Origin: an uncultured Polyangiaceae bacterium | GTDB taxonomy: Bacteria > Myxococcota_A > Polyangia > Polyangiales > Polyangiaceae | Reading direction: 5' to 3' | Length of the DNA stretch: 19,771 bases | Assembly: GCA_964537685.1 (NCBI GenBank) | Contig: CAZICM010000102.1 | Span: 1-19,771 of the forward strand | Shown here: positions 1 through 16,093 of the stretch, in pieces | How positions within the stretch are numbered: the stretch's first letter is position 1 | How the letters are laid out: the number at the start of each line of letters is the position of its first letter | The notes under the pieces: generated by a model | Databases searched by the model: none | What the model saw: the letters and a program-made list of their open reading frames with translations, nothing else | What the model was told of the DNA's origin: nothing | Program-made: the position numbers and the translations under genes

Positions 1-1804
1 CCTCCCGCGTCCATGTATTGCCCTGATGCTTAAACGCCAATACATCAAAGCCCGCCGTCAATTGAATCCCGCCGTTTACCGCATAAGAACCGGGTACTAG
101 GATCTCATTCTGCCCATCCGCATCGATATCCGCAGGAATAAATTCGATATCACAAGGATGCTGAAGCAGTGCCGGAATAGCAATCGCATTTGCATCAAAA
201 CCTTGAAGCGTCCACAGATTCACCGACCATTCATGAACATTTTCAAATTGGCAGCTCACCAGATCCGGCATTCCATCGCCATTCACATCTGCTAAATGAG
301 ACGAAGCATTCGCCGAATTAAAATGCAGCGGAGGCGCCGAGCCTTGAGCATATATTCTCTTTGTATTGCTCTTCAGATATTGGGCCGGCTGCGCTCCATT
401 GGATGATATCAAAAAACCCCAATTCACATATTCGCCCCGAAGATCGTGCAACAATAGATCCATGCGGCCATCATGATTAAAATCGATCGGCGTCGCGCTC
501 TCGGGCGGCCCTGGCAAGTTCGTGATGGGATCGATCACATGCGGCTGTTCAAAGACAATCTGCGATGCATTAAAATAATTACCCTGCCCCTGATTCGGCA
601 ACAATCTCCATAGCGTCTTATCTTCTCCGGGCTCGAGCTGCGTATCTTGCTCCGATATTAAAAGATCATCCAGGCCATCCCCCGTCATATCCAGCGTCAT
701 CACGCTTCCAAGATCATTGCTCGGACCTGATAAACCCGTCATCAACTCGTCAAAACCTGTTCCCTGCCCATGATCATAAGAAAACTTTGTTGCGGGCTTG
801 CAGGCTTGATCCGAAGCGCATTCTTGAATGGACGAGAGCAGTATGCGCTGGGTATTCGGCGATGTCTGATATGAAAACCTATATTCTCGAACCAGTTTAT
901 CTTCAGGTCCCCGGGCTTCAATCTTCTTCAGTTTTAACGATCGTTTTATGATCATTCCCCGGGCATACAGCTCCCGGGGTGTCTGCGATTCATATTTGAA
1001 AACGAGAGCCCGCGACGCAGGTGCATCAGGATGATCCGTGTAATCGATTCGCTCAGGCCCAAACTCCAGCGTATGACCATCCACTGGATCGCGCTCATTC
1101 TTATAGCTATATAAAACCGCGTTCTCATTTCGATCCCGCTGCTTGGATATCAGCCATGAGCGAACTACGCCGTCGCGTGAAAACACTTTGCCGCTGTCTT
1201 CGCTGCCATATTCAAAGATCAGCCCCGACTTCGCATAGACCGTAAACGCTGCCGGCCCTTTTGCGTTTGAGCTCGCTATGATCTTCGAAAAAGAATCAGG
1301 AACCGTCCGGTATTCATTGGGCGCAACTTCCACCAAGCGCGCCCCGTCCATGCAAAACGCATCCCCCGTATCATCCCCAACCGCCTCAATCTCGCCATCG
1401 TCCGCTAGATTCTTGCCGCAGCGCGAAATCGCCGACAGTCCCCCCAGCGAAAACCCAAACCCCAAAAATCCGTCATCCGAGCCGCTTGAGTAGCGGACAG
1501 AAATGCCTGGCACCTGCCCAGCCCGCCCAGGAACCGCCTCGATCGCATACAAAAAATTTGCTTCGCCGGCGCTTGACACCGAGAACAAGAAGTGGTTGGC
1601 ACCTGCCTCCGCCGTTTCCCCATTCGGCAAATCAGAAAGTGGCCGCTCTTTATCAAAATCTGGACAGCCCCAATACAACCCGCCCGGTGGAAGCGGTGCA
1701 GGCGCCGCTGCAAATGGCGAAATCTTCGCGTCTCCGCACGCGCCCGCTACCAGCACCACAAAGAGCACACCTAGCAATCGAAGGGGCAGTCCTTGTTTGG
1801 GCAT
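1..1804 (-). CDS. SpvB/TcaC-N-terminal domain plus FG-GAP/VCBS repeat protein (N-terminal region of the Tc-toxin TcB / Rhs family), putative lipoprotein; the 3' end lies outside the window
   Basis: Absent from the ORF track because it has no stop in the window. Read on the reverse complement from the ATG at 1804-1802, the frame stays open to base 1 (601 codons). The N-terminus MPKQGLPLRLLGVLFVVLVAGAC is a signal peptide with a lipobox-like VAGAC. GISVRYSSGSDDGFLGFGFSLGGLSAISRCG fits the SpvB-domain core. Repeated D-x-GDG-x-x-DL motifs (LDMTGDGLDDLLI, IDFNHDGRMDLLL, LADVNGDGMPDLVS, ADIDADGQNEILV) are FG-GAP/VCBS-like. Confidence 0.75.
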   Translation of the reverse strand, partial: MPKQGLPLRLLGVLFVVLVAGACGDAKISPFAAAPAPLPPGGLYWGCPDFDKERPLSDLPNGETAEAGANHFLFSVSSAGEANFLYAIEAVPGRAGQVPGISVRYSSGSDDGFLGFGFSLGGLSAISRCGKNLADDGEIEAVGDDTGDAFCMDGARLVEVAPNEYRTVPDSFSKIIASSNAKGPAAFTVYAKSGLIFEYGSEDSGKVFSRDGVVRSWLISKQRDRNENAVLYSYKNERDPVDGHTLEFGPERIDYTDHPDAPASRALVFKYESQTPRELYARGMIIKRSLKLKKIEARGPEDKLVREYRFSYQTSPNTQRILLSSIQECASDQACKPATKFSYDHGQGTGFDELMTGLSGPSNDLGSVMTLDMTGDGLDDLLISEQDTQLEPGEDKTLWRLLPNQGQGNYFNASQIVFEQPHVIDPITNLPGPPESATPIDFNHDGRMDLLLHDLRGEYVNWGFLISSNGAQPAQYLKSNTKRIYAQGSAPPLHFNSANASSHLADVNGDGMPDLVSCQFENVHEWSVNLWTLQGFDANAIAIPALLQHPCDIEFIPADIDADGQNEILVPGSYAVNGGIQLTAGFDVLAFKHQGNTWTRE

Positions 1805-1968
1805 GAAAGATAAATATCAGCTTCCTTGTCCAAAATCTTGTTTCACCGCGCAGAAAGCCCTGGCACCCTTTTCCCAGAAGAGCCCGTCTCCCTCGTTTCC
1901 AGCACCTGGCAGGCCCAACTTGCGCGGAAGCCGTCAAAACAAAGCAATATAAGCGCGCCTTTTCGGCT

Positions 1969-2434: not shown

Positions 2435-3097
2435 ATGGTGGATATGCCCCTCTCCCGCTTGAGCGAAGATGACGACCTCGTCCCCATCTCCGCCCTCCAA
2501 CATTTTTTGTTTTGCGAACGCCAAGCCGCCCTTATTCATATCGAGCGCGTTTGGAAGGAAGATACGGCCACCGCCGAAGGGCGCCTCCTGCATGAGCGCG
2601 CCGATATCCCAGGACGCGAAAATCGCCGCGGCACCCGTATCGAGCGTTCGCTGATGCTCCGTAGCCAAAAATTGATGCTCTATGGCGTGGCCGATACCGT
2701 CGAGTTTCCCGCCCGGGGTAAGGCCGGCCCTCCTTTTCCTGTCGAATATAAACGGGGCCGGGTAAAAGATTTATTGGCCGATCAGGTACAGCTTTGCGCG
2801 CAGGCTTTATGCCTTGAGGAAATGCTGGGCGTACCGGTGCCGGCGGGCGCTATTTTTTATGGTGAAAGCCATAAGCGCCTCGATGTACCTTTCGATGAAA
2901 GCCTTCGCGCCAAAACCCAGGAAAGCGCCCTGCGCATGCACGCGCTTATCCGCAAGGGCGAACTGCCCCAAGCGGTGTATGGCCCAAAATGCAAGCGATG
3001 TTCGCTTGAATCGCTATGCCTGCCCAGGGTTCCAGCCGATGCTCAACGGACACATCGCTATTTAGAGCGGCTATTGACCCAAGATATAGATGCCTAA
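2435..3097 (+). CDS. cas4: CRISPR-associated exonuclease Cas4 (RecB-like nuclease with Fe-S cluster), type I-C-like
   Basis: 220-aa ORF. It has an N-terminal Cys in ISALQHFLFCERQAALIHIE, the VEYKRG (EYK) nuclease motif, QLCAQALCLEEM, and a C-terminal C-x2-C-x5-C (CKRCSLESLC). It sits directly upstream of cas1-cas2. Confidence 0.9.
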   Translation: MVDMPLSRLSEDDDLVPISALQHFLFCERQAALIHIERVWKEDTATAEGRLLHERADIPGRENRRGTRIERSLMLRSQKLMLYGVADTVEFPARGKAGPPFPVEYKRGRVKDLLADQVQLCAQALCLEEMLGVPVPAGAIFYGESHKRLDVPFDESLRAKTQESALRMHALIRKGELPQAVYGPKCKRCSLESLCLPRVPADAQRTHRYLERLLTQDIDA

Positions 3098-3119
3098 TCC
3101 CGGAGGATCTTTATATTTT

Positions 3120-4151
3120 ATGAATCTTCAACTAAATACCCTATTCGTTACCTTGGATGGAGCCTATCTTCATAAAGATCATGCCACGCTGGTCGTCAAG
3201 CAGGAAGGCGAAACCAAGCTTCAGATTCCCATGGCCCATTTAGCATCGGTGGTATGCATGGGGCGCGTCGGCCTATCGCCGGAACTGATGGGCGCATTAA
3301 GCGAAGCGAACATCCATGTTGCCTTTTTCTCTGCGAATGGACGCTTTTTAGCCCGGGTGGAAGGCATGCCGGGCGGGAATGTGCTCTTACGGCGGAGTCA
3401 ATTCCGGGCGGCGGACAGCCGGGAGAAGAGTTTATCGCTGGCGCGATCGATGGTGATTGGGAAAGTGGCGAATACCCGTTCATTTTTAATGCATGCGCGG
3501 CGGGATGCGGGAGACGGCAAGAAGGGGGAGCTTAAGACCGCGTGTGAGCGGTTATCGATTCATTTAAGAGCGCTTGCATCGGCGGATAACCTAGAGACGG
3601 TACGGGGATTGGAAGGCATAGCGGCGAAGGATTATTTTGGGGTATTTGATCATTTAATTAAAAGGCCGGAGGCAGAATTCCGATTTGAAGGCCGGAGCCG
3701 GAGGCCGCCGCGGGATCGGATGAACGCGCTTTTATCGTTTGGCTATGCATTATTGATGCAAGACTGTGCGGGTGCGCTGATGGGGATGGGGCTGGATCCT
3801 GGGGTAGGATTTTTACATGAGGAGCGGCCTGGCCGATTATGTTTAGCGTTGGACATGATGGAGGAGCTACGGTGTGCGGTGGTGGATCGGCTGATGTTAT
3901 CGCTGGTGAACCGTGGGCAGCTTGCGGTGGAAGACTTTATGGAGGAGGCTTCGGGAGGATACCGATTAAAGGACGAAGCGCGCAAGAAGGTATTGGTAGC
4001 GTATCAAGAGAACAAGCAGCAAGAGGTGAGGCATATCTTTTTGGATCAGGCGACGGTATGGGGGCGGGTGCCGCATTTACAGGCGCAATTATTGGCGCGG
4101 GCGCTGCGTGAAGGCGGAGCAGGGGAGTACGCGCCATTTTCGATAAGATAG
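3120..4151 (+). CDS. cas1: CRISPR-associated endonuclease Cas1, type I-C (Cas1c) family
   Basis: MNLQLNTLFVT..., GRFLARVEG..GGNVLLRRSQ, NALLSFGYALL and GLDPGVGFLHE are Cas1c-like blocks. I prefer the ATG at 3120, which has GGAGGA at 3103-3108. The track start at 3090 overlaps the cas4 stop and adds 10 non-conserved residues. The stop at 4151 is secure. Confidence 0.93.
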   Translation: MNLQLNTLFVTLDGAYLHKDHATLVVKQEGETKLQIPMAHLASVVCMGRVGLSPELMGALSEANIHVAFFSANGRFLARVEGMPGGNVLLRRSQFRAADSREKSLSLARSMVIGKVANTRSFLMHARRDAGDGKKGELKTACERLSIHLRALASADNLETVRGLEGIAAKDYFGVFDHLIKRPEAEFRFEGRSRRPPRDRMNALLSFGYALLMQDCAGALMGMGLDPGVGFLHEERPGRLCLALDMMEELRCAVVDRLMLSLVNRGQLAVEDFMEEASGGYRLKDEARKKVLVAYQENKQQEVRHIFLDQATVWGRVPHLQAQLLARALREGGAGEYAPFSIR

Positions 4152-4164
4152 GAGGGAGGGAGCG

Positions 4165-4455
4165 ATGATGGTATTGATATGTTATGATGTAGCACAAGAC
4201 GACAAGGCCGGGGCGAAGCGACTGAGGCGGGTATCGGAAGCGTGTAAAGACTATGGGGTACGTGTACAGTATTCGGTATTTGAGTGCCGGATTGACGGAG
4301 TGATATGGGTCAATTTACGGAACCGGTTATTGAGCGAGATCGATTTGGGGAAGGACAGTTTGAGATTTTATTTTATCCGAGAGAACGACGCGGAGCGGAC
4401 AGAGCATCATGGGGTGAGAAAGCCAGTGGATCCGACGGGGGCGCTGGTGGTCTAG
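4165..4455 (+). CDS. cas2: CRISPR-associated endoribonuclease Cas2
   Basis: 96 aa. MMVLICYDV...RLRRVSEACKDYGVRVQYSVFEC...LRFYFI is a typical Cas2 ferredoxin-fold signature. GGAGGGAGGGAG lies upstream, and the gene is immediately followed by the leader and array. Confidence 0.92.
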   Translation: MMVLICYDVAQDDKAGAKRLRRVSEACKDYGVRVQYSVFECRIDGVIWVNLRNRLLSEIDLGKDSLRFYFIRENDAERTEHHGVRKPVDPTGALVV

Positions 4456-4655: not shown

Positions 4656-7056
4656 GTCGCTCTCTTCTTATGAAGAGGGCGTGGATTGAAACCTGTGCCC
4701 GACGAGCTCACCGGCCTTGTCGAGCAGGTCGCTCTCTTCTTATGAAGAGGGCGTGGATTGAAACTCGATCGCCGATGTTATCGCCGCGCGGATCGGCCTG
4801 TCGCTCTCTTCTTATGAAGAGGGCGTGGATTGAAACTAAAACGCCGCTGTACGTCTCTGCTGGCAGCGTGGTCGCTCTCTTCTTATGAAGAGGGCGTGGA
4901 TTGAAACTATTCGATCGTATGCGGCGACATGCTGCGCCTGCAGTCGCTCTCTTCTTATGAAGAGGGCGTGGATTGAAACGCGATGGTCGCTTCCGCTATG
5001 CGTGGGATCGAGGGTCGCTCTCTTCTTATGAAGAGGGCGTGGATTGAAACTCGAAGGCCGACACGGAGGAGCAGATCCGCGTGCGCGTCGCTCTCTTCTT
5101 ATGAAGAGGGCGTGGATTGAAACAATGACCAAAGGAAAGGAGACGGAGGTAGATGAAAGGTCGCTCTCTTCTTATGAAGAGGGCGTGGATTGAAACGTTG
5201 ATCCAATATCCCCCGCACACATAATCACGTCGCTCTCTTCTTATGAAGAGGGCGTGGATTGAAACTGTACCTTGCTTCTTTGGTATTCCTTGCCCCCAAT
5301 GTCGCTCTCTTCTTATGAAGAGGGCGTGGATTGAAACCTTCATCTTCGTCGCCTCCTCCTGCACTCGCCCAAGTCGCTCTCTTCTTATGAAGAGGGCGTG
5401 GATTGAAACAGCACTTGTTTGATATCCCATCCCGTGTCAATCACGTCGCTCTCTTCTTATGAAGAGGGCGTGGATTGAAACCTATCAATCGATAGCAATT
5501 CCGCGGGCAAAGGCTCGTCGCTCTCTTCTTATGAAGAGGGCGTGGATTGAAACACTTTATCTCCATTGTTTGAAGACATGGAGCATCAGTCGCTCTCTTC
5601 TTATGAAGAGGGCGTGGATTGAAACCACCAATCCGGGCGAGGACCCCAAACACTGTATCGTCGCTCTCTTCTTATGAAGAGGGCGTGGATTGAAACTGTT
5701 ATCAGTGACAAAAAGCCCTCAATATACACAAGTCGCTCTCTTCTTATGAAGAGGGCGTGGATTGAAACGCCGAGCCGCTGCGGCAGCCCGGCGGCTGGGC
5801 AAGTCGCTCTCTTCTTATGAAGAGGGCGTGGATTGAAACCGGGAACGCTCGCGCGTCTTGCTAGACAGCCTGTCGCTCTCTTCTTATGAAGAGGGCGTGG
5901 ATTGAAACCGACGGGATCTGCCTGATCTGCCTCATGTGCCTAGTCGCTCTCTTCTTATGAAGAGGGCGTGGATTGAAACGGGTCTTGCGCCCTAACTAGC
6001 ACGCGATACGTGAGTCGCTCTCTTCTTATGAAGAGGGCGTGGATTGAAACTGAGCTTCTTCCGCCGCTGCTTTGAGTTCTTCAAGTCGCTCTCTTCTTAT
6101 GAAGAGGGCGTGGATTGAAACGGATGCTCTGTCGCGCGCCTTGAATCATCTCAAAGTCGCTCTCTTCTTATGAAGAGGGCGTGGATTGAAACATCAACGA
6201 AAAGCTCATGACGCAGACCTTGTGCAATCGTCGCTCTCTTCTTATGAAGAGGGCGTGGATTGAAACGTAGATCGGGTGACATTTAGGCGACGCCCTGACC
6301 ACGTCGCTCTCTTCTTATGAAGAGGGCGTGGATTGAAACGCCGATATGGCGCGCAGTCCGCGCGTTGACCTTCGGTCGCTCTCTTCTTATGAAGAGGGCG
6401 TGGATTGAAACCATCGCTCACGGCGTCCCATCCCCAGCGCCCATCGGGGTCGCTCTCTTCTTATGAAGAGGGCGTGGATTGAAACCCGTCCGGACCGATA
6501 CCTCGCTTAAACCAGGTGAGGTCGCTCTCTTCTTATGAAGAGGGCGTGGATTGAAACGTGACTTCGCGCGGAGTCGCATTGCTTATCGAAGTCGCTCTCT
6601 TCTTATGAAGAGGGCGTGGATTGAAACCGGTGACGGTTACGGTTACGGTGCCGGTTACGGGTCGCTCTCTTCTTATGAAGAGGGCGTGGATTGAAACGAT
6701 TGGCGATAAACGGATGCAGGAGCCCCCACGATGTCGCTCTCTTCTTATGAAGAGGGCGTGGATTGAAACGATTGGCGATAAACGGATGCAGGAGCCCCCA
6801 CGATGTCGCTCTCTTCTTATGAAGAGGGCGTGGATTGAAACTTGGCTGCTGCGATGTATGCCATCAGGGCGAACGCGTCGCTCTCTTCTTATGAAGAGGG
6901 CGTGGATTGAAACAGCATCCGGCTTGCGTGGGAGAAAGAGGCTTGGGCGTCGCTCTCTTCTTATGAAGAGGGCGTGGATTGAAACATGAACGACCACATC
7001 GCTTTTCGGATCTCTTCGGGTCGCTCTCTTCTTATGAAGAGGGCGTGGATTGAAAC
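4656..7056 (+). CRISPR. CRISPR array with 34 identical 37-nt repeats GTCGCTCTCTTCTTATGAAGAGGGCGTGGATTGAAAC and 33 spacers of 32-37 nt
   Basis: Repeats start at 4656, 4728, 4800, 4871, 4943, 5014, 5087, 5160, 5229, 5301, 5373, 5445, 5517, 5589, 5660, 5732, 5803, 5872, 5943, 6014, 6085, 6156, 6230, 6303, 6375, 6449, 6521, 6591, 6661, 6733, 6805, 6877, 6949 and 7020. The termini GTCGC...GCGTGGATTGAAAC are those of classic type I-C repeats. The internal hairpin pairs GCUCUCUUC with GAAGAGGGC (9 bp including one G-U pair) around a UUAU loop. Confidence 0.99.
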
Positions 7057-7413
7057 TTATAACAGCGAGGATTCAACTCCGATGAATCCGCGCTGAACGA
7101 AACACACTGCAAATCACACGAAGGGGTCGCAGGAAAGGATGCCGAAGCCCCAGCGATCGCATTGATGGCTGATGAAGATGCAGGGATGCCAGCGCTGAAA
7201 AATCCCCGCCGAATGAGCCGCCATCGGAAAATAAGCAATACGCCATTCCCACCTCGGCGCCCATCCCTGCCCTAACCTCCCCGCTCCCGCCATCCTGTCA
7301 CCAAATGGTGTTGCAGGAAGGCGCATTGTCCGACTGATGCGTTTTGCAATTCGTGCTTCAATCTGTCCAAGCTCTGTGGCTTTGAGGGATACGGCGATTG
7401 CCAAGGTAGCCGA

Positions 7414-7437
7414 TCAACAACTCAACAGTTGCATTTG
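7414..7437. repeat. Copy 1 of the 24-bp motif TCAACAACTCAACAGTTGCATTTG (core palindrome CAACT-N4-AGTTG); candidate operator
   Basis: Identical over 24 nt to 13590-13613. It lies in the 540-bp non-coding stretch between the last CRISPR repeat and the gene starting at 7596. Confidence 0.85.
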
Positions 7438-7595
7438 TCTTGTTTTGTTTCGGCTGTTTTCCATCTCGATCTCCCTCCGAATCGATTGATTCTCGAGGCA
7501 CTTCAATTGCGCCGCAAAATCTGATAGCCACAAAAAAGCGGCCGATGTAATGAGACGCCGGCCGCACGGGAACCCTTTTTAGATAAGGCCACCCA

Positions 7596-8636
7596 ATGAA
7601 AAAATTGCTACGATTTGCCTGCTTTGTGCAAGTCCTGTTTGGTCTTGCTTTTTTTTCTGGCCGAACTGCGCGCGCTCAGTCGAATTCCGAAGAGGTGTTC
7701 AACATGCTCTTCGAGCAGGGCAGCAAAGCCGCTGATAAAGACAACTTCAATGAAACGATCGCGGCTTGGATTCCTGCATATCGCATCAAGCCACACTATA
7801 AGATCGCCTGCGGTATCGGCCGCCTCTCCCTGCGCTTGGAACGCCTTGTGGAGGCCGCAACCTGGCTGAATCGATGCAGGCTCACCGCGCCGCCACCAAA
7901 AACAGACGAAGGCATCGCGAGGCGCGGCACGGAGTTGGTCGAGCTTGAGGTCGCAAAAGCGCATCTCATCACCGCAGCCGTTCATGCAGAACCAGGGGCA
8001 ACGATCTTTGCTCACGGTGACGAAATGGGGATCGCTCCGCTCAACGTGACCCTGTTTTTTGCGCCCGGTAAAAACTCGATCGAGGCGCGGAAATCAGGCG
8101 AAACCATGACCATAGCTTTTGAGGGCGAGCGTGGTCAGGAACTCACTATCGATTTAAGGCCGCGCCAATTGCCCGCGCGCGTCGTCCCTATCTCAGACGC
8201 AGAAACCCCTTCGCCTCTCGTGACCGCGCCTGTGCCTGCTCCGGCCACCCTCACCATGCCCTCGTGGGAACCCAAGCCCGCAACGTGGCGCTCATGGGGC
8301 AAAATTGCCCGAAGCAACGTCTACATTTTTACGATGGGTGGTGCTTTTGCCCTCGGCGGTTACTTTGCTCTTGTGAGCGAGGGAATGCAGGACAGCCACG
8401 AAATGGAGCTCAGCATGGCGGTGAAATACACGCGAATGGGGCTCTATGTGGAAGCTGCTTCCGCACTTGACTCGGCCAAATCCGCGAACTTCTGGCGCCT
8501 TGTGTCTTCCGGATTTTCGACCGCGTTTCTTATCGCCGGTAGCACGATGGCTAGTGGATGGCTGGGCGCCGTGACGTTGGACAATGTTTCGATTGGCCGT
8601 GACTCGGCCTTGGTTCAAGGGAGTTTTCGATGGTGA
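7596..8636 (+). CDS. Secreted/membrane protein with a PEGA-like domain (hypothetical)
   Basis: 346 aa. The signal peptide is MKKLLRFACFVQVLFGLAFFSGRTARA. A PEGA-like segment reads GATIFAHGDEMGIAPLNVTLFFAPGKNSIEARKSGE. A Pro-rich linker follows, then two C-terminal hydrophobic helices (VYIFTMGGAFALGGYFALV and FSTAFLIAGSTMASGWLGAV). The stop overlaps the next start (ATGGTGA). Confidence 0.65.
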   Translation: MKKLLRFACFVQVLFGLAFFSGRTARAQSNSEEVFNMLFEQGSKAADKDNFNETIAAWIPAYRIKPHYKIACGIGRLSLRLERLVEAATWLNRCRLTAPPPKTDEGIARRGTELVELEVAKAHLITAAVHAEPGATIFAHGDEMGIAPLNVTLFFAPGKNSIEARKSGETMTIAFEGERGQELTIDLRPRQLPARVVPISDAETPSPLVTAPVPAPATLTMPSWEPKPATWRSWGKIARSNVYIFTMGGAFALGGYFALVSEGMQDSHEMELSMAVKYTRMGLYVEAASALDSAKSANFWRLVSSGFSTAFLIAGSTMASGWLGAVTLDNVSIGRDSALVQGSFRW

Positions 8637-9592
8637 CGCTCGGCAGATTCGCGTTGATGGTTGCGGGATTCTTACTTCTCGCCGATGGATGCGGCACGGC
8701 GGAAGCAACACAAGAAGCCTACGATAAGTGCCTCGATTTCAACTATGGGCATGGCGGCCCTGCAACTGGCGAGGGAGGCCAAGGCGGAAGCGTCGCCAAT
8801 GCATGCACGCCTGAATGTACAGCAGAAACGGCGGCGAAGGATTGCGCCGCTCTGGCGCCCGATCCTCGTTGCGGAAGCGTGGTGTGTGTTGAAAACAGGT
8901 GTGCGCGGCAAATTAAGCCCGGCCCGATTCCTTCCCAAAAATATGGCGACTGCAAACAAGCCGTTTGTGATGGAGCGGGCAACCTGATCGAAATAGGTGA
9001 TGATACGGATTACTACAACGATGGGAATCAATGCACTGTTGATTTTTGCAAGAGTGGCGCGGCGCATTTCGTGATGCCAGACGGTGTTCAATGCCCCGAA
9101 ACGGACGAGGGATTTTGTTATAATGGCGAATGCGTTGAATGCATTGGCACTTTGCCACAGGCCGCATGCAAAGGCGCCGGGATGGTCTGCAATCAGTTTT
9201 GGTGTGAACTCTTTGTGGATTGCATTGGAAAGTGTGGCGGCAATTGCGTCCCGTGCTCCTTTGGCCAAGCATGCATTGAGAATGCCGATTGCTTGAGCGG
9301 AGTTTGTGCGAATGGAATATGTCAATTCCCGACATGCGCGGACGGGGTCAAGAACGATGGAGAGACGGGCAAGGATTGCGGTGCCCCAAGCTGCGCCGAT
9401 TGTCCACCCGGCGAGGGTTGTGTGCTGCCCGAGGATTGCCTTAGTTCTGTCTGCATGTTGGGAATTTGCCAAGCTCCCACATGCACCGATGGAGTGAAAA
9501 ACGGCGACGAGGAAGGCATTGATTGTGGCGGCAGTTGCGGCGCATGCTTTGCCCAATGGGAGAAAAAAATGCGCAAACGGGGTAGTATTTAG
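8630..9592 (+). CDS. Secreted cysteine-rich repeat protein (hypothetical)
   Basis: 320 aa. The N-terminal hydrophobic leader MVTLGRFALMVAGFLLLADGC is followed by about 40 Cys residues. There are two clear C-terminal modules of the form C-x-x-x-x-DCLS-x-VC-x-x-GICQ-x-PTC-x-DGVKN-x-x-E-x-G-x-DCG-x-x-x-C-x-x-C. The start is translationally coupled to the upstream gene. Confidence 0.75.
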   Translation: MVTLGRFALMVAGFLLLADGCGTAEATQEAYDKCLDFNYGHGGPATGEGGQGGSVANACTPECTAETAAKDCAALAPDPRCGSVVCVENRCARQIKPGPIPSQKYGDCKQAVCDGAGNLIEIGDDTDYYNDGNQCTVDFCKSGAAHFVMPDGVQCPETDEGFCYNGECVECIGTLPQAACKGAGMVCNQFWCELFVDCIGKCGGNCVPCSFGQACIENADCLSGVCANGICQFPTCADGVKNDGETGKDCGAPSCADCPPGEGCVLPEDCLSSVCMLGICQAPTCTDGVKNGDEEGIDCGGSCGACFAQWEKKMRKRGSI

Positions 9593-9655
9593 ATCAACCG
9601 CCACGGCAAAGAACAAGGTCAACCCAGCAAGCCAAATCGCAATACGGAGGAGAGA

Positions 9656-10381
9656 ATGATTAAATTTCCGGGCAAACACCAGCGGCTTCGACAAATAGCC
9701 ATTACGGGCGCGATCCTTATTTCGACGCTTATGCATGCCCCTAAAGCAAGAGGCACCGATTTTGGTGATCTTGGGATCGAGCCCATCGATGCGGATGCAA
9801 TGCGTTCCTATATGACGGCTCATTATCGAGACATTCAAGTCCACGGAGGCGTATCGATTGGCCTTGGCGCGGTGGGCATGGCGGCCGGTGCGTATCTGCT
9901 CCTTCGGCCGCCCGCAGCGGAACACCGCAAGATTTCGATCCCCTTGCTGACCTTTGGAGTGAGTCAAATTGTTGTTGGCTCGCTTTTAGTCGCATTTCCC
10001 CCTCCACACGTTGCCGAGGCGGGAGGCATGCTCACAAACGACCCCGATCGATTCATCACTTCTGAGCAGGACCGTGCGAGCAATCTCCACCGGCTTCTCA
10101 CGTATGGGGTGGTCGGCGCGTCTAGCAGCGTTTTGATTCCCATGGTTGTATGGTTGTTTTCAGATGAGTTCAAGAAGACTTGGCAGCCGCTCATCGTCAC
10201 ACAGGTGGGCGAAGGGTTAATAACGTGGCTTATGGCTTCATCACTTCAGGGGTCTTTGGAGGATTATCAGCGGAAGCTCTTTGGCTTTGAGCTGAACAGA
10301 GCATTGCAATCCCCTGGTAGTCCTCAACCAAAACCAATGTTGACCCGCCCGATCATGTTCAAGGTAACGGTTCCATTTTAG
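9656..10381 (+). CDS. Integral membrane protein (hypothetical)
   Basis: 241 aa with GGAGGAG 5 nt upstream of the start. Hydrophobic segments include ITGAILISTLMHA, VSIGLGAVGMAAGAYLLL, LLTFGVSQIVVGSLLVAF and LLTYGVVGASSSVLIPMVVWLF. I recognise no family. Confidence 0.6.
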   Translation: MIKFPGKHQRLRQIAITGAILISTLMHAPKARGTDFGDLGIEPIDADAMRSYMTAHYRDIQVHGGVSIGLGAVGMAAGAYLLLRPPAAEHRKISIPLLTFGVSQIVVGSLLVAFPPPHVAEAGGMLTNDPDRFITSEQDRASNLHRLLTYGVVGASSSVLIPMVVWLFSDEFKKTWQPLIVTQVGEGLITWLMASSLQGSLEDYQRKLFGFELNRALQSPGSPQPKPMLTRPIMFKVTVPF

Positions 10382-10465
10382 GCCCTTCTTTCGCTTTAGG
10401 CGAATGATTTCACATGGTCTTATGATATCGATCTTGATTACCCGCTTGAACTGAAGGAAGACTCC

Positions 10466-12628
10466 ATGAAAGACTGGCTTCGATTTGGCAGCAAAATAGG
10501 CGACCACACCATCACGGGTGTTGGCCGGCACGGCACGGATATCCAGCGATACAAGGCCATTCATCGCAGAACTCGTGTCCCGGTTATCATCACTTGCACG
10601 ATGTACGACAAAGAGCGAGGGCCGTTCAACTTTGAGGCTCGAGCTGAATATCGAGCCTCGCTTAACATTTGCGTGCCTTTGCTAGACTGGGGTAAGACCG
10701 AACAAGGTTTGTTTTACCTCGTCGAACCGGACCTGAACATCCAACCTCTCAACTCTCTTCCAGACTCCTCCTCCCCACAAATGATTTGCGTAGTGGCCCA
10801 TGCTTTGGCCTGCCAGCTCAGAGCGTTTGCCAGGGCGTATTTTTTACACGGTGCCCTTGAACCGCGGGAAACTGTGGGGATTGTTAAAGGACAGGTTACA
10901 ATCTACGGTGTGGGTTTCCGTCAGATCCTTGAACGCGACAGGGGGATAGGAATTCACGCAAGCGATCACACCGCACCCGAAATCATGGATGGAAGAACGT
11001 GGGATCACAAGGCGGACGTATACAGTGTGTGTTCTATTGTAGCATCGATGTGGAAAGTCTGCAACAAGTCGCTCCGCGATTTGGGGTTCGTTGGCGACTT
11101 GTTGGAACTGGGCTTGCGCCCGGACCCAGCGGAGCGCTTGATGTGGGGAGACTTTGTGCGTGTGTTTGGCGATCTTTTGCACCAAATCATTGAGCACACA
11201 TGGCCACCGGGCGAGAAGACCGATCGGGTCAAAAAATTTTTGGAAAAGGAAGCGGATTCCAGGCCGGATTCGGACGAAACGCCCATTGACAATCACACCG
11301 AGCCCCTGGACGCTAAAGTGCTTGGGGACTGGGAGATCCGTCTGCAATTCGCGGAAGCAAGCGATGGGATCGAAAGCTACCTTGCCCAACGGATTCGCGG
11401 CTCTGAAGTCGCTTTATTGCGCAGATCTCGATCGTCCACGGTGCACGCAACGGCGCTACACGCAACCGCGCTAAAGGAGTGGATGGCGAAACGGGACACG
11501 ATCACTCAACCAAACATCCCTTCGTTGGTGGACGCAGGTGTAAGTTGCGATGGATGGATGTTCGTTGCCGAGGATTTCCCGGCAGAGAATGTCCTACCCT
11601 CCCTTTTTGAATTCGGGAGCCTCGAGAACCAGCGCGAAAAGGTTCTCAAGACTGTGCGGAGCGCGGCGCAAGCACTTCAAACAGCGGCAAAACGCGGAGT
11701 GTTTCACGGGGATTTGGTGCCCAACCGCGATTTGATCGTTGATCGAAAGAATGGACGATTGATGGTGATGGGGATCGGAGCTCTTCAAGCCTTCGGCCTC
11801 GGGGAACATGTGACGAGCAACCCTCACGCCGCACCGGAACGGCGCGCGGGAGAGCCCTTTGATCACCGCGCCGATATGTATGCACTTGCGGCGATTCTTC
11901 GCGAAGCGCTGAGCCAAGCGGGAACAGAAGAGCTTGAAGGATGTTTCGTCCAATTTTTTGAGATCGCGTTAGCCCCCAAACCGGCGGATCGTTTCAAAAC
12001 CTGGGGAAAGTTCCTCGCATCGCTGGATCGATGCCTGAAATTGTCCGCGGCGCAATCGGCGAAAAGCAAAGGCGGGACAAGACCGGCAGCGCCCACCACG
12101 GCGCCCGCCCACACGCCGACGAGCTGGACGCCGTCATCCAGCGATCCTACACCGCCTCCGGCACCTCAAGGCGCAAAAGCGGGCGAACGCGAAGCCGCAC
12201 GGGTGCTCGAGCTCGTGGTGAACCCCGCGAACGAAAACACCCAGCATGGGCCGAAAGGGACGGAGGGCGAGACGATCGACCGTGAAACCCTGCCTTCGCC
12301 GGTTTTCGCTCCAGCGTGGCGGCCATCGCGTGCATTGGCCTGGATCGCTTCAAGCGTGGGCGGCGTCGCTTCTGTTGCGGCATCCCTCGCGTTGCTTTGG
12401 TCTGCGCGCGTTCCCCCCCTCGCGCCGTTTGAGTTGGTCCAAAGTCCTGCGACATATGAAACCTCGAGTGTGTTATGGGCCATGAGTGCGGTGGAAGGCA
12501 TTCGATCCATCGAGCCTTCGCAATCCGCAATTGTATCGCACCCGAGGGGCAGCCATGCGCGCCTCGAACCCGCCCGTTCGCGCGGTTGCAGCCTTGTTCA
12601 CTGCACGCTCGAAGGGGATCAAGAATGA
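10466..12628 (+). CDS. Membrane-anchored protein with two tandem degenerate Ser/Thr-kinase-like (pseudokinase) domains
   Basis: 720 aa. Domain 1 has a G-loop GVGRHG, but VAIK is replaced by VIIT, HRD by HGA (FLHGALEPRE) and DFG by YGVGF; TAPE and DVYSVCSI are kept. Domain 2 has no G-loop; VALLR replaces VAIK, HGDLVPNRD keeps the Asp and Asn, MGIG replaces DFG, and AAPE and DMYALAAIL are kept. A Pro/Thr-rich linker, one TM helix (ALAWIASSVGGVASVAASLALLW) and a tail of about 90 aa follow. Confidence 0.7.
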   Translation: MKDWLRFGSKIGDHTITGVGRHGTDIQRYKAIHRRTRVPVIITCTMYDKERGPFNFEARAEYRASLNICVPLLDWGKTEQGLFYLVEPDLNIQPLNSLPDSSSPQMICVVAHALACQLRAFARAYFLHGALEPRETVGIVKGQVTIYGVGFRQILERDRGIGIHASDHTAPEIMDGRTWDHKADVYSVCSIVASMWKVCNKSLRDLGFVGDLLELGLRPDPAERLMWGDFVRVFGDLLHQIIEHTWPPGEKTDRVKKFLEKEADSRPDSDETPIDNHTEPLDAKVLGDWEIRLQFAEASDGIESYLAQRIRGSEVALLRRSRSSTVHATALHATALKEWMAKRDTITQPNIPSLVDAGVSCDGWMFVAEDFPAENVLPSLFEFGSLENQREKVLKTVRSAAQALQTAAKRGVFHGDLVPNRDLIVDRKNGRLMVMGIGALQAFGLGEHVTSNPHAAPERRAGEPFDHRADMYALAAILREALSQAGTEELEGCFVQFFEIALAPKPADRFKTWGKFLASLDRCLKLSAAQSAKSKGGTRPAAPTTAPAHTPTSWTPSSSDPTPPPAPQGAKAGEREAARVLELVVNPANENTQHGPKGTEGETIDRETLPSPVFAPAWRPSRALAWIASSVGGVASVAASLALLWSARVPPLAPFELVQSPATYETSSVLWAMSAVEGIRSIEPSQSAIVSHPRGSHARLEPARSRGCSLVHCTLEGDQE

Positions 12629-12685
12629 ATATGAAGCCGATTATGTTCGAATTGAAGTTTGCCTTCTGATTGGTCGTTTGAAGCT

Positions 12686-13093
12686 ATGCCTGCAAAACCC
12701 CTTTCAGCCGTCGAGGTAGGGAACCGCATACGCGAGCACCGAAGAGCGCGGGGGCTGATTCTTGCCGACTTGGCCCGAAAAGCGGGCCTAACGATGGAAC
12801 AGCTTCAAAGGATTGAGCAAGGTCTGCACGATCCAACGGCTTCGGTGCTTTGGGCCATCGCAAGGGGGCTAGGGCTGTCACCTGGAGACATTCTAGCGCC
12901 ACGGGGCACACTGTCAGATGAAGCTCGAGAGTTTATCGAGCTTTGCGCGATGGTGCCGAGTGAAGTGCAGCAGGCACTTGTGCAGATTATGAGGGCAAGC
13001 CTTGCCGAAGTGCGCCCCGCCACATCTTCGCCATCCTTGAAGCGAGACGGGAAGGCGAGTCAAGGAAAGCGGCCGAAGGCGATCGGGAGATAG
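12686..13093 (+). CDS. XRE-family helix-turn-helix transcriptional regulator (paralog 1 of 3)
   Basis: VGNRIREHRRARGLILADLARKAGLTMEQLQRIEQGLHDPTASVLWAIARGLGLSPGDIL is a canonical XRE/Cro-C1 HTH. I prefer the ATG at 12686; the track start at 12659 is a TTG. The stop at 13093 is secure. Confidence 0.85.
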   Translation: MPAKPLSAVEVGNRIREHRRARGLILADLARKAGLTMEQLQRIEQGLHDPTASVLWAIARGLGLSPGDILAPRGTLSDEAREFIELCAMVPSEVQQALVQIMRASLAEVRPATSSPSLKRDGKASQGKRPKAIGR

Positions 13094-13142
13094 GATGTAT
13101 GCTTTTTGAGACTCGGCTTACATCGGACTTGATTCCTCGCTT

Positions 13143-13163
13143 GAAGAGGGCGGGGATTGAAAC
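13143..13163 (+). repeat. Solitary CRISPR half-repeat: GAAGAGGGCGGGGATTGAAAC matches the 3' 21 nt of the array repeat at 20 of 21 positions
   Basis: The array repeat at positions 17-37 reads GAAGAGGGCGTGGATTGAAAC, so there is a single T-to-G difference. The half-repeat lies 6.1 kb from the array, on the same strand, and ends 18 nt upstream of the ATG (13182) of XRE paralog 2. The sequence on its 5' side is not repeat-like but can still form a short CCTC/GAGG stem. Confidence 0.9.
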
Positions 13164-13181
13164 AAACCAGGAGATCGGACG

Positions 13182-13562
13182 ATGCAACGCGAGAGACAAG
13201 ATAGCAAAGCGGAGCTTGGCGCGGTGATTCGGCGATGGCGGGCAAGGCAGAGCCTAACCATTGAGACATTGGGAGAGCGAGCGGGCTTGCACAAAGACGA
13301 TCTGATGATGATCGAGTGTGGCGAGTGCGATCCGGCCTTTTCGACGGTATGCGCAATCGCGGCGGGTTTTGGGTTGAGCGCGGGCGAGATGCTATCCGAC
13401 GATCATGAGGCGTTAGCCGACAGCGCGCTCGAAATGGTCAGGCTTTTTGCCGATGCGCCGGAGCCGATAAGCAGTGCGTTGCCAGGCTTTTTGAATGCCT
13501 GCATTGCCGCGAAAGAGGCGAAGGCAAGGCGAAGGGCGCGGGGGAAGGCGATAGGGAGCTAA
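13182..13562 (+). CDS. XRE-family helix-turn-helix transcriptional regulator (paralog 2 of 3) with a conserved C-terminal extension
   Basis: 126 aa with AGGAG at 13169-13173. The HTH reads LGAVIRRWRARQSLTIETLGERAGLHKDDLMMIECGECDPAFSTVCAIAAGFGLSAGEML. The C-terminal block ADSALEMVRLFADAPEP...ACIAAKEAKARRRARGK is shared with paralog 3. Confidence 0.88.
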   Translation: MQRERQDSKAELGAVIRRWRARQSLTIETLGERAGLHKDDLMMIECGECDPAFSTVCAIAAGFGLSAGEMLSDDHEALADSALEMVRLFADAPEPISSALPGFLNACIAAKEAKARRRARGKAIGS

Positions 13563-13589
13563 AGAACAGGACAACCTATGGGTACTCAG

Positions 13590-13613
13590 TCAACAACTCA
13601 ACAGTTGCATTTG
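13590..13613. repeat. Copy 2 of the 24-bp motif TCAACAACTCAACAGTTGCATTTG; candidate operator
   Basis: Identical to 7414-7437. It lies 28 nt after the stop of XRE paralog 2 and upstream of paralog 3. Confidence 0.85.
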
Positions 13614-13663
13614 CCCCGATTCATCCCACGGTGACTTTTTGCTCCAGCGCTCTTCGTGTCGGT

Positions 13664-13687
13664 TCAACAACTCAAATGTTCTATTCG
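13664..13687. repeat. Degenerate copy 3 of the 24-bp motif (TCAACAACTCAAATGTTCTATTCG, 19 of 24 identical)
   Basis: Aligned by eye to copies 1 and 2. The first 12 nt are identical and the second half-site is degenerate. It starts 74 bp downstream of the start of copy 2. Confidence 0.6.
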
Positions 13688-13797: not shown

Positions 13798-14304
13798 ATG
13801 GAAATGAACGACGACTCCGATACTTACAACGATGGCAATCTCGGCCCGGCCGACGACGGCCAAAGCAGCTCAAGCTTCGACCAGCGGAGCACGGACCCGG
13901 CAGGCGATCGAATCATCGATCACGAGAAGCTCGAGAAGCTCGATGCCAAGTCAGAGCTCGGCATGGCAATCCAACGTTGGCGGATAAGGCGGGGGCTAAG
14001 CGTAGAGGCATTGGGAGAACGGGCAGGGTTGCTTGGGCACCATGTCTTGATGATTGAGCGCGGGGAGTGCGATCCCGCGTTTTCGACGGTAGCCGCAATC
14101 GCGGCGGGTCTTGGGTTGAGCGCAGGCGAAATGCTATCCGGGGATCATGAGGCTATCGCGGATAGTGCGCTCGAAATCGTGCGGCTGTACGCGGATGCGC
14201 CGGAACCGGTGAAGAGCTCGCTTCCAACCTTTTTGATGGCGTGTATTGCAGCCAAGGAGGCTAAGGCCAAGCGGAGGGCGCGAAGAAAGCCCAGCGGAAG
14301 CTAA
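13798..14304 (+). CDS. XRE-family helix-turn-helix transcriptional regulator (paralog 3 of 3) with an acidic, low-complexity N-terminal extension
   Basis: The HTH (LGMAIQRWRIRRGLSVEALGERAGLLGHHVLMIERGECDPAFSTVAAIAAGLGLSAGEML) and the C-terminal block (ADSALEIVRLYADAPEP...ACIAAKEAKAKRRARRK) are very close to paralog 2. The start is uncertain: GTG at 13774 (track), ATG at 13798 or ATG at 13804. The stop at 14304 is secure. Confidence 0.8.
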   Translation: MEMNDDSDTYNDGNLGPADDGQSSSSFDQRSTDPAGDRIIDHEKLEKLDAKSELGMAIQRWRIRRGLSVEALGERAGLLGHHVLMIERGECDPAFSTVAAIAAGLGLSAGEMLSGDHEAIADSALEIVRLYADAPEPVKSSLPTFLMACIAAKEAKAKRRARRKPSGS

Positions 14305-14399
14305 AAGAACGAGGCGATGCCCACAAAGCCTCTTTCGGCCACGGCCCGCTTTGCAAAAAAGTGCTTGACGCCTCCCTGGGGAAAAGGCAGGCCAAAGAC

Positions 14400-14945
14400 A
14401 TGAAGACAAAACAGCGAGAAGACTTGCTCGGCACACTAAAAACCCGCTTTGAAAAAAATATGCGCCGTCATTTGGGCCTTGAATGGGCAAAGGTGCAAGC
14501 CAAGCTGGAGGCGAGTGCTGAAAAGCTACGGTCGCTCGGCGAAATGGAGAGAACGGGCGGCGAGCCGGATGTCGTTGGCTACAATCAACAAAGCGGCGAG
14601 TATTTGTTTATGGATTGTTCTGCGGAAAGCCCCGAGGGCCGCAGGAGTATTTGTTATGACCGGGAGGCGTTGGATTCAAGAAAAGAACATAAACCGGCCG
14701 ATACCGCCATGGATATGAGCAAGGCCATGGGGATTGAAATGCTCACGGAAGAACAATACCGGACGCTGCAATCCCTTGGAGAATTCGATACAAAAACATC
14801 GAGCTGGCTAAAAACACCCGCTGAAATTAGAAAACTCGGCGGCGCTATCTTTGGCGACCGCCGCTACAATCATGTCTTTGTGTATCACAACGGCGCTTCG
14901 TCTTATTATGCCGCCAGGGGATTCCGGGGCGCGCTGAGGGTCTGA
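14400..14945 (+). CDS. DUF4256 family protein (function unknown)
   Basis: The blocks MERTGGEPDVVGY, FMDCSAESPEGRRSICYD, GIEMLTEEQYRTLQ, FDTKTSSWLKTP and GGAIFGDRRYNHVFVYHNGASSYYAARGFRGALRV are, as I recall them, the conserved DUF4256 blocks. I prefer the ATG at 14400 over the GTG at 14361 used by the track. Confidence 0.78.
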   Translation: MKTKQREDLLGTLKTRFEKNMRRHLGLEWAKVQAKLEASAEKLRSLGEMERTGGEPDVVGYNQQSGEYLFMDCSAESPEGRRSICYDREALDSRKEHKPADTAMDMSKAMGIEMLTEEQYRTLQSLGEFDTKTSSWLKTPAEIRKLGGAIFGDRRYNHVFVYHNGASSYYAARGFRGALRV

Positions 14946-15068
14946 ATCGCATCTTCGCCAACGCGGCTCATCGGATTGGTGAATGATTTTTTATTATTTT
15001 TATTCTATTTTCGATCGAGAATTATTTTCGATCGAATGGACGCGCTTTATGCCGGATATTCAATCCAA

Positions 15069-15452
15069 TTACACAGAAAATCGATAGGGTGGAAGCGTTT
15101 CAATCGTATTCATCACTGTGCGCCCATTCGCCGAGCGCGCCACATAGTGCGTTCCCATATCCACGATGGGCTTTTCCCGTTCGGGTATGGGCTCGCCCTC
15201 TTCCGCTTCTTCTTCGGCCGCCTCCGGCTCGACATTTAAATCTAAATCGCCGGGATCTTCGCCCGATGGCTGTTCGGGCTTCACCACGCTGGTCGCCCCA
15301 ATGCTCGCCAATAACTCGCGTATCCCGTCCTCGCCGCCTTCGTAGGCCGACATATCATTGCCAGACACGCCCAGCGCGCCCGCCGCCATGTCCACCGCCG
15401 CGTCCACCAAATCGCCCGCCGACGGAACTTTGATGCCGAAATCGATGCCCAT
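15069..15452 (-). CDS. Small acidic hypothetical protein, last gene of the M23/LysM operon
   Basis: 127 aa with GAGAGG 8 nt upstream of the ATG, which lies 17 nt after the LysM gene stop. It has an acidic low-complexity centre (EPEAAEEEAEEGEP), no signal peptide, and no family that I recognise. Confidence 0.6.
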   Translation of the reverse strand: MGIDFGIKVPSAGDLVDAAVDMAAGALGVSGNDMSAYEGGEDGIRELLASIGATSVVKPEQPSGEDPGDLDLNVEPEAAEEEAEEGEPIPEREKPIVDMGTHYVARSANGRTVMNTIETLPPYRFSV

Positions 15453-15469
15453 AAACTCAAACCTCTCTT

Positions 15470-16093
15470 CTATGAACCGTATTCGTCCTCAAGCGCCTTC
15501 GCCGTCTTGTCGTCCAGCTCGCCCGTCGGCTCTATCCCTTTGATGCGCTGAAAATCCGATATCGCTTGCTTGGTTTCGTCGTCGAGATCGCCGTGTATGC
15601 CGCCTTCGTAGAGCCGGAAGTTTCTCAGCCGTCCCTGCGCTCCCGATGCCTGTTTCGCCGGATCGATGTGTCCAAGCGCCAGCGTGTAGCGCTGCCTCCG
15701 CTTCGGCAAAAATAAAGTCACCGTGCTTAAATCCGCGGGGATATCGGCCTTCAGCTTGCCCGAACCGTCGGTCTTGCCTTCTATTTCTTCGCCCAAGAGC
15801 CCCAGCACATAAGGCTCGTTCGGCAGAGGTTTTAGGTTTGCCGTCAGCTTTAAATGAATCGTCGCCTTCTCGAGCTTGACTTGAAAGGTGTGCCGCTTCT
15901 TCGTCTCGGCCGACTCCATCTTGCGCGTCCGATCGGGCACAAACACCTTGTCGCCCGGATGGAGCACATTGGGATCTTTGCGCTTGTCGCGCAGCTCTTG
16001 ATTCTGGCCGGCCTCCCACAAAAGCTTCCAGGGCATGCCGTGCTTGGCCGCGATGCTCGCGATGCAATCCCCTTGCTTTACCGTGTAATACAT
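15470..16093 (-). CDS. LysM-domain protein with a C-terminal peptidoglycan-binding-like (PGB1-type) repeat
   Basis: 207 aa. The N-terminal YTVKQGDCIASIAAKHGMPWKLLWEAGQNQELRDKRKDPNVLHPGDKVFVP is a LysM domain. The C-terminal GDLDDETKQAISDFQRIKGIEPTGELDDKTAKAL resembles a PG_binding_1 helix pair. AAGGAG lies upstream. There is no signal peptide. Confidence 0.75.
   Translation of the reverse strand: MYYTVKQGDCIASIAAKHGMPWKLLWEAGQNQELRDKRKDPNVLHPGDKVFVPDRTRKMESAETKKRHTFQVKLEKATIHLKLTANLKPLPNEPYVLGLLGEEIEGKTDGSGKLKADIPADLSTVTLFLPKRRQRYTLALGHIDPAKQASGAQGRLRNFRLYEGGIHGDLDDETKQAISDFQRIKGIEPTGELDDKTAKALEDEYGS

Follow-up and report, generated by a model that had tools for sequence, protein, structure and literature searches.

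Spacer 26 of a type I-C CRISPR array from an uncultured Polyangiaceae bacterium resembles a junction between two regulatory genes, XRE1 and XRE2, located 6.6 kb further downstream. In the chromosome, the two halves of this match are parted by a solitary piece of the CRISPR repeat, referred to below as the half-repeat. The window analysed here covers positions 1–19,771 of contig CAZICM010000102.1 (assembly GCA_964537685.1). The explanation that we favour, and for which we see an even chance, is that the half-repeat is array-derived DNA captured at a recombination hot spot, and that spacer 26 was obtained from a diverged sibling of the junction.

Spacer 26 (6486–6520, forward strand; CCGTCCGGACCGATACCTCGCTTAAACCAGGTGAG) is the 26th of 33 spacers counted from the leader and is thus old. 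It is composed of a diverged copy of a motif, M (nt 2–22), followed by a T and by a block, AAACCAGGTGAG (nt 24–35), that is similar to the sequence around the ribosome-binding site of XRE2. In the chromosome, spacer nt 2–23 correspond to the right-hand copy of motif M together with the adjoining T (13114–13142, forward strand; CGGCTTACATCGGACTTGATTCCTCGCT plus T), and the counterpart of nt 24–35 falls in block B (13164–13181, forward strand; AAACCAGGAGATCGGACG). The alignments put forward in the initial annotation were reproduced at the same coordinates: spacer nt 6–23 match positions 13124–13142 with 16 of 18 identities and one 1-nt gap, and nt 24–35 match 13164–13175 on the same strand with 10 of 12 identities. 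In the latter stretch the resident sequence reads AAACCAGGAGAT, sharing with the spacer the core AAACCAGG(A/T)GA. The two blocks are contiguous in the spacer, where the 16-mer CCTCGCTTAAACCAGG spans their joint, and their chromosomal counterparts are indeed parted by exactly the 21 nt of the half-repeat (13143–13163). The matched site had been described as the 5' untranslated region of an XRE gene. This holds for the 3' block, which is the ribosome-binding region of XRE2 (13182–13562, forward strand; an XRE-type helix-turn-helix gene), but not for the 5' block, which belongs to the 3' flank of XRE1 (12686–13093, forward strand).

Local alignment of spacer 26 to the junction from which the 21 nt had been excised gave 26 identities in 30 columns (score 21), as compared to a score of 13 when the 21 nt were retained. 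Aligned end to end with the excised junction, the spacer displays 28 identities over 35 positions and two 1-nt indels. When 3000 shuffled spacer sets were run on the excised junction, not one attained a score of 21 (mean maximum 10.2, standard deviation 1.2, largest 18), confirming that the match lies far above background. Every 21-nt deletion in the non-array part of the window (∼17,000) was also compared with the 33 spacers on both strands (66 orientations). The top score of 21 was obtained with the deletion starting at position 13143, while the next best deletion elsewhere scored 18 and the intact sequence at best 15. Moreover, the 3' block of spacer 26 has its sole good match at offset 21 after position 13142, the probability of at least 10 identities in 12 being 3.8e-5 per offset and ∼2e-3 across 60 offsets. 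A chance resemblance is barely conceivable. All that can be said for it is that the comparison was picked after the data had been seen; with no shuffled set at the observed score, and with the best of all deletions in all orientations being exactly the half-repeat, this explanation is effectively refuted.

The half-repeat (forward strand; GAAGAGGGCGGGGATTGAAAC) corresponds to nt 17–37 of the CRISPR repeat with a single T-to-G change. Of its 21 positions, 20 agree with the end of the repeat (21 of 22 when the preceding T13142 is counted). It is the sole copy outside the array, has the same orientation as the array, and would be expected by chance 0.00 times; judging from its sequence, it is derived from the array. 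In the latter (4656–7056, forward strand), 33 spacers separate 34 identical 37-nt repeats (GTCGCTCTCTTCTTATGAAGAGGGCGTGGATTGAAAC), and the leader is on the cas2 side. The repeat, which ends in ATTGAAAC, forms a hairpin of 10 bp with a tail of 11 nt behind it. This ending, the hairpin with its 11-nt handle and the clade of the neighbouring Cas1 protein (461.8 bits to the NCBIfam Cas1c model, cut-off 385) identify the array as type I-C. The terminal repeat, R34 (7020–7056, forward strand), is a perfect copy, and its last 22 nt (7035–7056) constitute the left member of a direct repeat, the right member of which is located at 13142–13163 (21 of 22 identities in a direct alignment). The degenerate last repeat that is usual in arrays is missing, all 34 repeats being identical, and the only mutated copy is the displaced half-repeat. 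Within the array, spacers 29 (6698–6732) and 30 (6770–6804) are identical, indicating an internal duplication, and spacer 28 (6628–6660) is a low-complexity run of CGGTTA-like units.

In order to compare the junction among related strains, we used 20 short contigs from public metagenome assemblies, retrieved by exact-protein look-ups (entry L022 is the same contig as L002, re-read). Motif M, the T and the half-repeat are kept in eight contigs (L001–L007 and L010) that are 97–100% identical to the window, with single substitutions in L001 (GAAGTGGG) and L010 (ATTGCTCGC). They are also kept in L014, the sequence of which diverges after position 13167, and in L015, which carries a perfect 22/22 copy of the repeat end and diverges immediately after the half-repeat. 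In addition, L015 contains a 70-nt insertion at 13117/13118, which bounds motif M on the left. Four breakpoints are thus found between 13117 and 13168: the half-repeat itself (13142/13143), the L015 insertion, and the points after 13163 and after 13167 where variants T4 and T3, respectively, begin. Three right-hand variants start within 5 nt of the last base of the repeat, and strain variants diverge within block B between 13163 and 13168, although the strains bearing these breakpoints are otherwise 95–100% identical. The ∼50-nt XRE1–XRE2 intergenic stretch is a rearrangement hot spot, and its breakpoints are independent. In the comparison of relatives proposed in the initial annotation, the half-repeat is thus kept in near-identical strains and its 3' edge is a strain-variable junction.

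The strains also differ in the predicted folding of the half-repeat. Its only predicted hairpin ends 7 nt before the end of the repeat, as opposed to 11 nt in the array repeat, and has reduced stability in L015 and L010. All strains share the last 10 nt of the handle (GGATTGAAAC) without change, and the eleventh, handle-distal base is T in L015 and G in the others. Scans with Rfam models and for tRNA genes returned nothing, and no promoter-like site was found near the half-repeat. A TTG triplet inside the half-repeat opens a 15-codon frame (13157–13204) that overlaps the start codon of XRE2. In L015, this TTG is the only possible start of a 107-aa signal-peptide protein (3880–4230 of that contig) and is preceded, 6 nt upstream, by a GAGGG ribosome-binding site; a second kinase-like gene follows this reading frame.

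A paralogous cluster, XRE2'-XRE3'-XRE1''-DUF4256 (85–89% identical), matches the window only from position 13162 on; it is devoid of the half-repeat and has a (TGGA)n repeat in front. The DNA identity of XRE2' to its resident paralogue is 89% in L008 and L009 and 85–86% in L011–L013, and that of XRE1'' is ∼76–77%. No uninterrupted M–B junction is present after XRE1'' in this cluster, where the DUF4256 gene follows directly. The (TGGA)n microsatellite and a GGATGG-rich sequence before XRE2', which make up the first ∼90 nt of L008, L009 and L011–L013, break assemblies. In scaffold L010 (1480–1570), the half-repeat junction is joined to such GGATGG-rich/(TGGA)n sequence across a run of Ns, which implies that one genome carries XRE2 twice or that strains are mixed. 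Searches for wider homologues did not extend the comparison: XRE2 found no relative in the GTDB genomes, protein searches seeded with XRE2, XRE1 and XRE1'' returned this lineage only, and the 22-mer of the repeat is absent from the GTDB genomes, IMG/VR and the JGI metagenomes.

Several searches were performed for the DNA from which spacer 26 was taken. A pattern of the junction that allows for either allele (GATNCCTCGCTTAAACCAGGNGA) had no match in IMG/VR or the JGI metagenomes. Two 19-mers from the spacer were likewise without a match in IMG/VR, where four patterns were tried in all, and the GTDB genomes gave no hit. Blastn searches against GenBank phages and PLSDB plasmids resulted in chance matches only (E of at least 1). 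However, none of the 33 spacers, searched as a concatenate, matches the phage records, and the repeat itself is missing from three large collections, so the absence of the donor is uninformative; this organism's mobile elements have just not been sampled. The match of the spacer shows that its source carried M and B counterparts (M' and B') contiguously, without the 21 nt, and was ∼80% identical to the resident junction. Since 28 of 35 identities contrast with a divergence of at most 3% among the resident strains, the source was a diverged homologue of the XRE1–XRE2 region and not this locus. The proposal that the spacer came from a relative lacking the insertion can thus be kept, a diverged XRE1–XRE2 sibling being its best reading, without the accompanying notion of a free-standing insertion in an ordinary untranslated region. 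That notion does not stand, because the half-repeat is part of a larger arrangement: it forms the 22-nt direct repeat, adjoins an inverted pair of M copies and closes a 6.1-kb bracket.

The half-repeat had also been imagined as looped out of the target. Looping out has no mechanistic meaning for the Cascade complex, and even with the 21 nt excised the resident site would not be targeted: the position of the protospacer-adjacent motif (PAM) reads CTT/GCT instead of TTC and the five PAM-proximal bases of the spacer are mismatched. Given that the PAM is absent, the seed mismatched and the site interrupted by 21 nt, the CRISPR RNA (crRNA) made from spacer 26 should be unable to act on the resident copy, a conclusion that is in part directly visible and in part inferred. 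It could still act on relatives lacking the scar. On this contig, spacer 26 is accordingly not a self-targeting spacer, its counterpart being only 80% identical, interrupted and provided with the wrong PAM.

Taken together, the following sequence of events can be envisaged. Spacer 26 is an ordinary, old type I-C spacer acquired from DNA in which M' and B' were contiguous. The donor would have been another copy or allele of the XRE-regulated kinase island, residing on the chromosome of a relative or on a mobile element. At the resident locus, one event at the hot spot may have set repeat nt 17–37 exactly between M and the ribosome-binding site, with the array 6 kb upstream as the likely source and recombination or end-joining involving the 3' boundary of the repeat as the likely process. 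The half-repeat would accordingly be a structural scar, neither an RNA device nor a looped-out element. M and B are regarded as one unit split by the half-repeat because operator-like repeats and XRE paralogues are found on both sides of it. The operator-like repeat, TCAACAACTCAACAGTTGCATTTG, which has a short palindrome, is present once upstream of the operon that follows the array (7405–7437, forward strand) and twice between XRE2 and its paralogue XRE3 (13581–13613 and 13655–13687; 88% and 70% identity), suggesting, by its distribution, common control by XRE proteins. The scar explanation is further consistent with the existence of diverged paralogous XRE modules (XRE2', XRE1'') in the same populations, with the lack of any guide-target logic and with the absence of the canonical Cas5c hairpin geometry. 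Two other routes to the same structure were considered and rejected. Template switching between the inverted M copies predicts a reverse-complement orientation and TTATAA, neither of which is seen, and a crossover between spacer and protospacer followed by deletion would need at least two precise deletions.

Several points weigh against the scar explanation. The sibling without the half-repeat is deduced from the spacer, its donor sequence not having been found in the searches described above. Neither joint has useful microhomology, and the insertion stops exactly at the last base of the repeat, an end point not expected if filler DNA had been captured at random. The 22-nt direct repeat combined with the 28-nt inverted one resembles the footprint that an inserted cassette would leave, to which the scar explanation gives no more than a partial causal role. 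In a comparison without an outgroup, a gain of the 21 nt by the resident and their loss by the donor look alike. Finally, all the evidence comes from one uncultured lineage, and the comparison strains are short metagenomic contigs only.

The footprint just mentioned is formed in part by copies of motif M. A palindromic element (7063–7095; stem 7063–7074/7084–7095 with 11 of 12 pairs, loop AACTCCGAT) starts 7 nt after the last repeat; it may serve as the terminator of the array and contains an inverted copy of M (7064–7090). This copy and the right-hand one in the XRE1 3' flank (13114–13141) are identical at 24 of 28 positions with one gap. Their alignment score of 34 was not reached in any of 2000 shuffles (16.9 ± 2.3), and an inverted-repeat scan found 19 of 21 positions complementary. 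The motif has two matches in the window, as against 0.01 expected. With up to five edits allowed, the window contains no further copy of M except that in spacer 26. No additional copies, such as a high-copy extragenic palindrome family might have, were found in ∼25 kb of sampled sequence, which speaks neither for nor against membership in such a family. The order of elements is therefore: the last repeat (ending in TGAAGAGGGCGTGGATTGAAAC), TTATAAC, inverted M, four genes and XRE1, M, T, the half-repeat, the ribosome-binding site and XRE2. The 6.1-kb kinase-plus-XRE segment is bracketed by the 22-nt direct repeat on the outside and the 28-nt inverted repeat on the inside, and so has what a cassette would have: a direct repeat of the 3' part of its target at both ends, and terminal inverted repeats. 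Among its five genes, no integrase, transposase or Cas effector signature was detected with Pfam, PADLOC, NCBIfam and further protein searches.

The four genes form an operon within 7596–12628 on the forward strand (7596/7704–8636, 8630–9592, 9656–10381 and 10466–12628). The last of them codes for a Ser/Thr-kinase-like protein of 720 aa that belongs to the PD-T4-6 defence type (PADLOC E = 1.7e-20), the kinase core of which is of the PD-T4-6/phage Ser-Thr kinase type. For the products of the first three genes there is no matching family in Pfam, NCBIfam, PADLOC or PHROG, and the 320-aa and 241-aa proteins gave no credible match to PDB sequences. By its gene content, the operon is a candidate new defence system beside the CRISPR array. 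XRE1, the last gene of the 6.1-kb segment, encodes a 135-aa HTH_3/HTH_31 regulator, and XRE3 (13798–14304, forward strand) is a paralogue of XRE2 with 74% DNA identity. On the other side of the array, cas4 (2435–3097; Pfam Cas_Cas4), cas1 (3090–4151; Cas_Cas1) and cas2 (4165–4455; CRISPR_Cas2) are encoded on the forward strand. The 19.8-kb window contains no cas3, cas5, cas8 or cas7, so that cas4-cas1-cas2 is a stand-alone adaptation module there; the genome portion covered is this single contig, and effector genes may sit elsewhere in the genome. Upstream of cas4 there are a 42-nt tandem repeat in 3.3 copies (2012–2149) and a divergent large reading frame of more than 605 aa (2–1816, minus strand), and the assembly of metagenomic contigs is interrupted at the tandem repeat as well as at the CRISPR array. 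Downstream of XRE3 (14361–19510), a DUF4256 gene is followed by two peptidoglycan-binding/M23/LysM genes on the minus strand, and vgrG (16946–19117) and PAAR (19142–19510) genes show that a type VI secretion effector locus adjoins the CRISPR/defence island.

The bracketed arrangement invites a different explanation, namely that 7057–13141 (the four genes and XRE1) is a non-autonomous mobile cassette with ∼28-nt terminal inverted repeats that integrated into or at the last CRISPR repeat. The half-repeat would then represent the distal copy of a duplicated 22-nt attachment core or target, unless it is what is left of the 3' part of a 35th repeat that was split; the empty site would read as the last repeat followed by AAACCAGGAG, and the junction of the excised circle as CCTCGCTTGAAGAGGGCG(T/G)GGATTGAAACTTATAACAGCGAGG. 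The direct repeat, with the intact repeat proximal and a partial 3' copy distal, and the inverted pair just inside it fit such a cassette. The same is true of the perfection of all 34 array repeats when the displaced copy alone is mutated, as terminal repeats often are, and of the strain-specific DNA after the half-repeat, which could be trailer or stacked cassettes. We nevertheless consider this explanation unlikely. It makes B a mere array trailer, yet in spacer 26 M' and B' are contiguous elsewhere; the operator repeats and XRE paralogues span the half-repeat and so join the cassette and XRE2/XRE3 into one unit. The cassette is without an integrase or transposase signature, and the gap between direct and inverted repeat is 7 nt on the left and 1 nt on the right, without a short target duplication. 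No genome or contig with the empty site was seen, all contigs that reach the left end sharing one junction. It is improbable, in turn, that the half-repeat is a regulatory crRNA-like RNA, cut by Cas5c to leave an 11-nt 5' handle, with an adjoining guide that takes Cascade to a partially matching promoter site flanked by a PAM and so represses the neighbouring defence genes or XRE2. Its position after a kinase-type operon, the complementarity of the adjacent motif M to a site just before that operon and the invariance of the last 10 handle nt would suit such a function. However, the complementary block is placed 5' rather than 3' of the repeat half, M and its partner align only with indels and are thus out of register, and a guide following the last repeat would pair only from its eighth base. 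The sequence 3' of the half-repeat varies between strains and lacks a PAM-flanked partial target, the predicted hairpin has a 7-nt instead of an 11-nt tail and is weakened in two strain variants, and there are no Cascade genes in the window. Three candidate guides were tried and discarded: the 3' sequences of variants T1, T3 and T4 gave background matches only and no PAM-flanked target, the sequence after the last repeat pairs with M 7 nt out of register, and M combined with a degenerate upstream handle has indels inside the seed.

Autoimmunity provides another possible, though quite improbable, origin of the split match. Spacer 26 would have been acquired from the own chromosome, and the cell would have escaped through the 21-nt insertion, changes in PAM and seed and possibly loss of the effector. 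The interruption does fall within the counterpart of the protospacer, divergence is greatest at the PAM and the bases next to it, and the effector genes are absent beside cas4-cas1-cas2; the last point is offset by the extent of the window, as these genes may simply be located elsewhere. On the other hand, seven substitutions or indels in 35 nt in addition to the insertion are far above the 0–3% strain divergence, when a single PAM or seed change suffices for escape, and strains that are unlike in other places share the half-repeat, M and B. It is highly improbable that the half-repeat acts as an RNA anti-CRISPR (Racr), that is, as a decoy transcribed from an island of mobile origin that soaks up Cas5 and Cas7. 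Although it lies between two helix-turn-helix genes, like solitary units near anti-CRISPR loci, it retains only 21–22 of the 37 repeat bases and has lost the 5' stem arm, and hence the hairpin of the repeat; no promoter-like site is nearby, no anti-CRISPR-like gene is evident, and the unit resides on the host chromosome beside the array of the host itself. One feature is left unexplained by the scar and the cassette models alike: the insert ends at the last base of the repeat, and later rearrangements start there. As such precision is what an action on the repeat end would yield, Cas1-Cas2 or a site-specific recombinase comes into consideration. A proposal to which we assign a slim chance is that the 3' end of the repeat (GGATTGAAAC|) might be an integron-like recombination site. 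Defence cassettes, each ending in a palindrome and a site-regenerating half-repeat, would be inserted and exchanged behind the array by the stand-alone Cas4-Cas1-Cas2 module, whose cleavage falls exactly on this boundary, or by another recombinase, and an array spacer directed at the junction without the half-repeat would discriminate resident from non-resident islands.

Solitary type I-C repeat units termed CRISIS produce crRNA-like RNAs that supervise defence systems (Shu et al.; bioRxiv 10.1101/2024.12.27.630466). They are found directly after defence genes, within the cas operon between cas3 and cas5c, with a 3' spacer-like part matching, in register, a TTC- or TTA-flanked promoter site before these genes, and contain a hairpin followed by an 11-nt handle (bioRxiv 10.1101/2024.12.27.630466). 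Our half-repeat likewise comes directly after a defence-like cluster, is adjacent to a block complementary to a site upstream of it and has conserved handle-proximal bases. In contrast to CRISIS units, it comprises only repeat nt 17–37, its complementary block is on the 5' side and aligns with indels, and its 3' sequence is variable and gave no target in our scans. As to location, it follows the defence-like operon and XRE1, but lies downstream of the array with no cas5c nearby. Racrs are full repeat mimics with a stem-loop, carried by phages and plasmids, usually with a promoter or anti-CRISPR gene in front of them (Camara-Wilpert et al. 2023; PMC10651486); these solitary units, of which one type I-C case has been tested, are near anti-CRISPR loci that typically contain helix-turn-helix genes (PMC10651486). 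The half-repeat shares with them the mimicry of a CRISPR repeat outside an array and the proximity to helix-turn-helix genes, but is chromosomal, lacks the native stem-loop and lies beside its cognate array. The mini-CRISPRs CreA and CreR, known from CreTA and from Cas autoregulation, have two repeat-like flanks on either side of a spacer-like stretch, the seed of which matches a PAM-flanked promoter (bioRxiv 10.1101/2023.03.10.532045). They resemble our case in being degenerate repeat remnants that lie close to a CRISPR locus and partly match DNA in the vicinity, and differ from it in that we found a single half-repeat with neither a second flank nor a promoter target.

Other comparisons concern the spacer and the bracketed segment. 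Self-targeting or self-like spacers with degraded targets were reportedly described by Stern and co-workers in 2010. Spacer 26 is similar in its resemblance to its own genome and in the disabled state of the resident target, and dissimilar in the identity of only ∼80% and in the splitting of the target by repeat-derived DNA, of which we know of no earlier description. Where genomic islands sit in tRNA genes, one of their ends bears the gene intact and the opposite end a partial copy of its 3' part. The kinase-plus-XRE segment is comparable to these islands and to inverted-repeat cassettes in having an intact copy of the repeat at one end, a partial 3' copy at the other and inverted repeats inside. 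It differs in that the target would be a CRISPR repeat, in that there is neither a recombinase nor an empty site, and in that spacer 26 contradicts the simple form of such a model. Solitary repeats elsewhere have been found acting as regulators and anti-CRISPRs, whereas the half-repeat passes neither test and is instead tied to structural change: it marks the far edge of the cassette, the DNA of the strains differs within 5 nt of it, and a spacer preserves the uninterrupted junction. If the ends of CRISPR repeats do recombine, arrays would, besides recording infections, be landing pads that help to assemble defence islands. Should the half-repeat be no more than a scar, spacer 26 would still offer a rare natural example in which a spacer dates and records a rearrangement close to itself.

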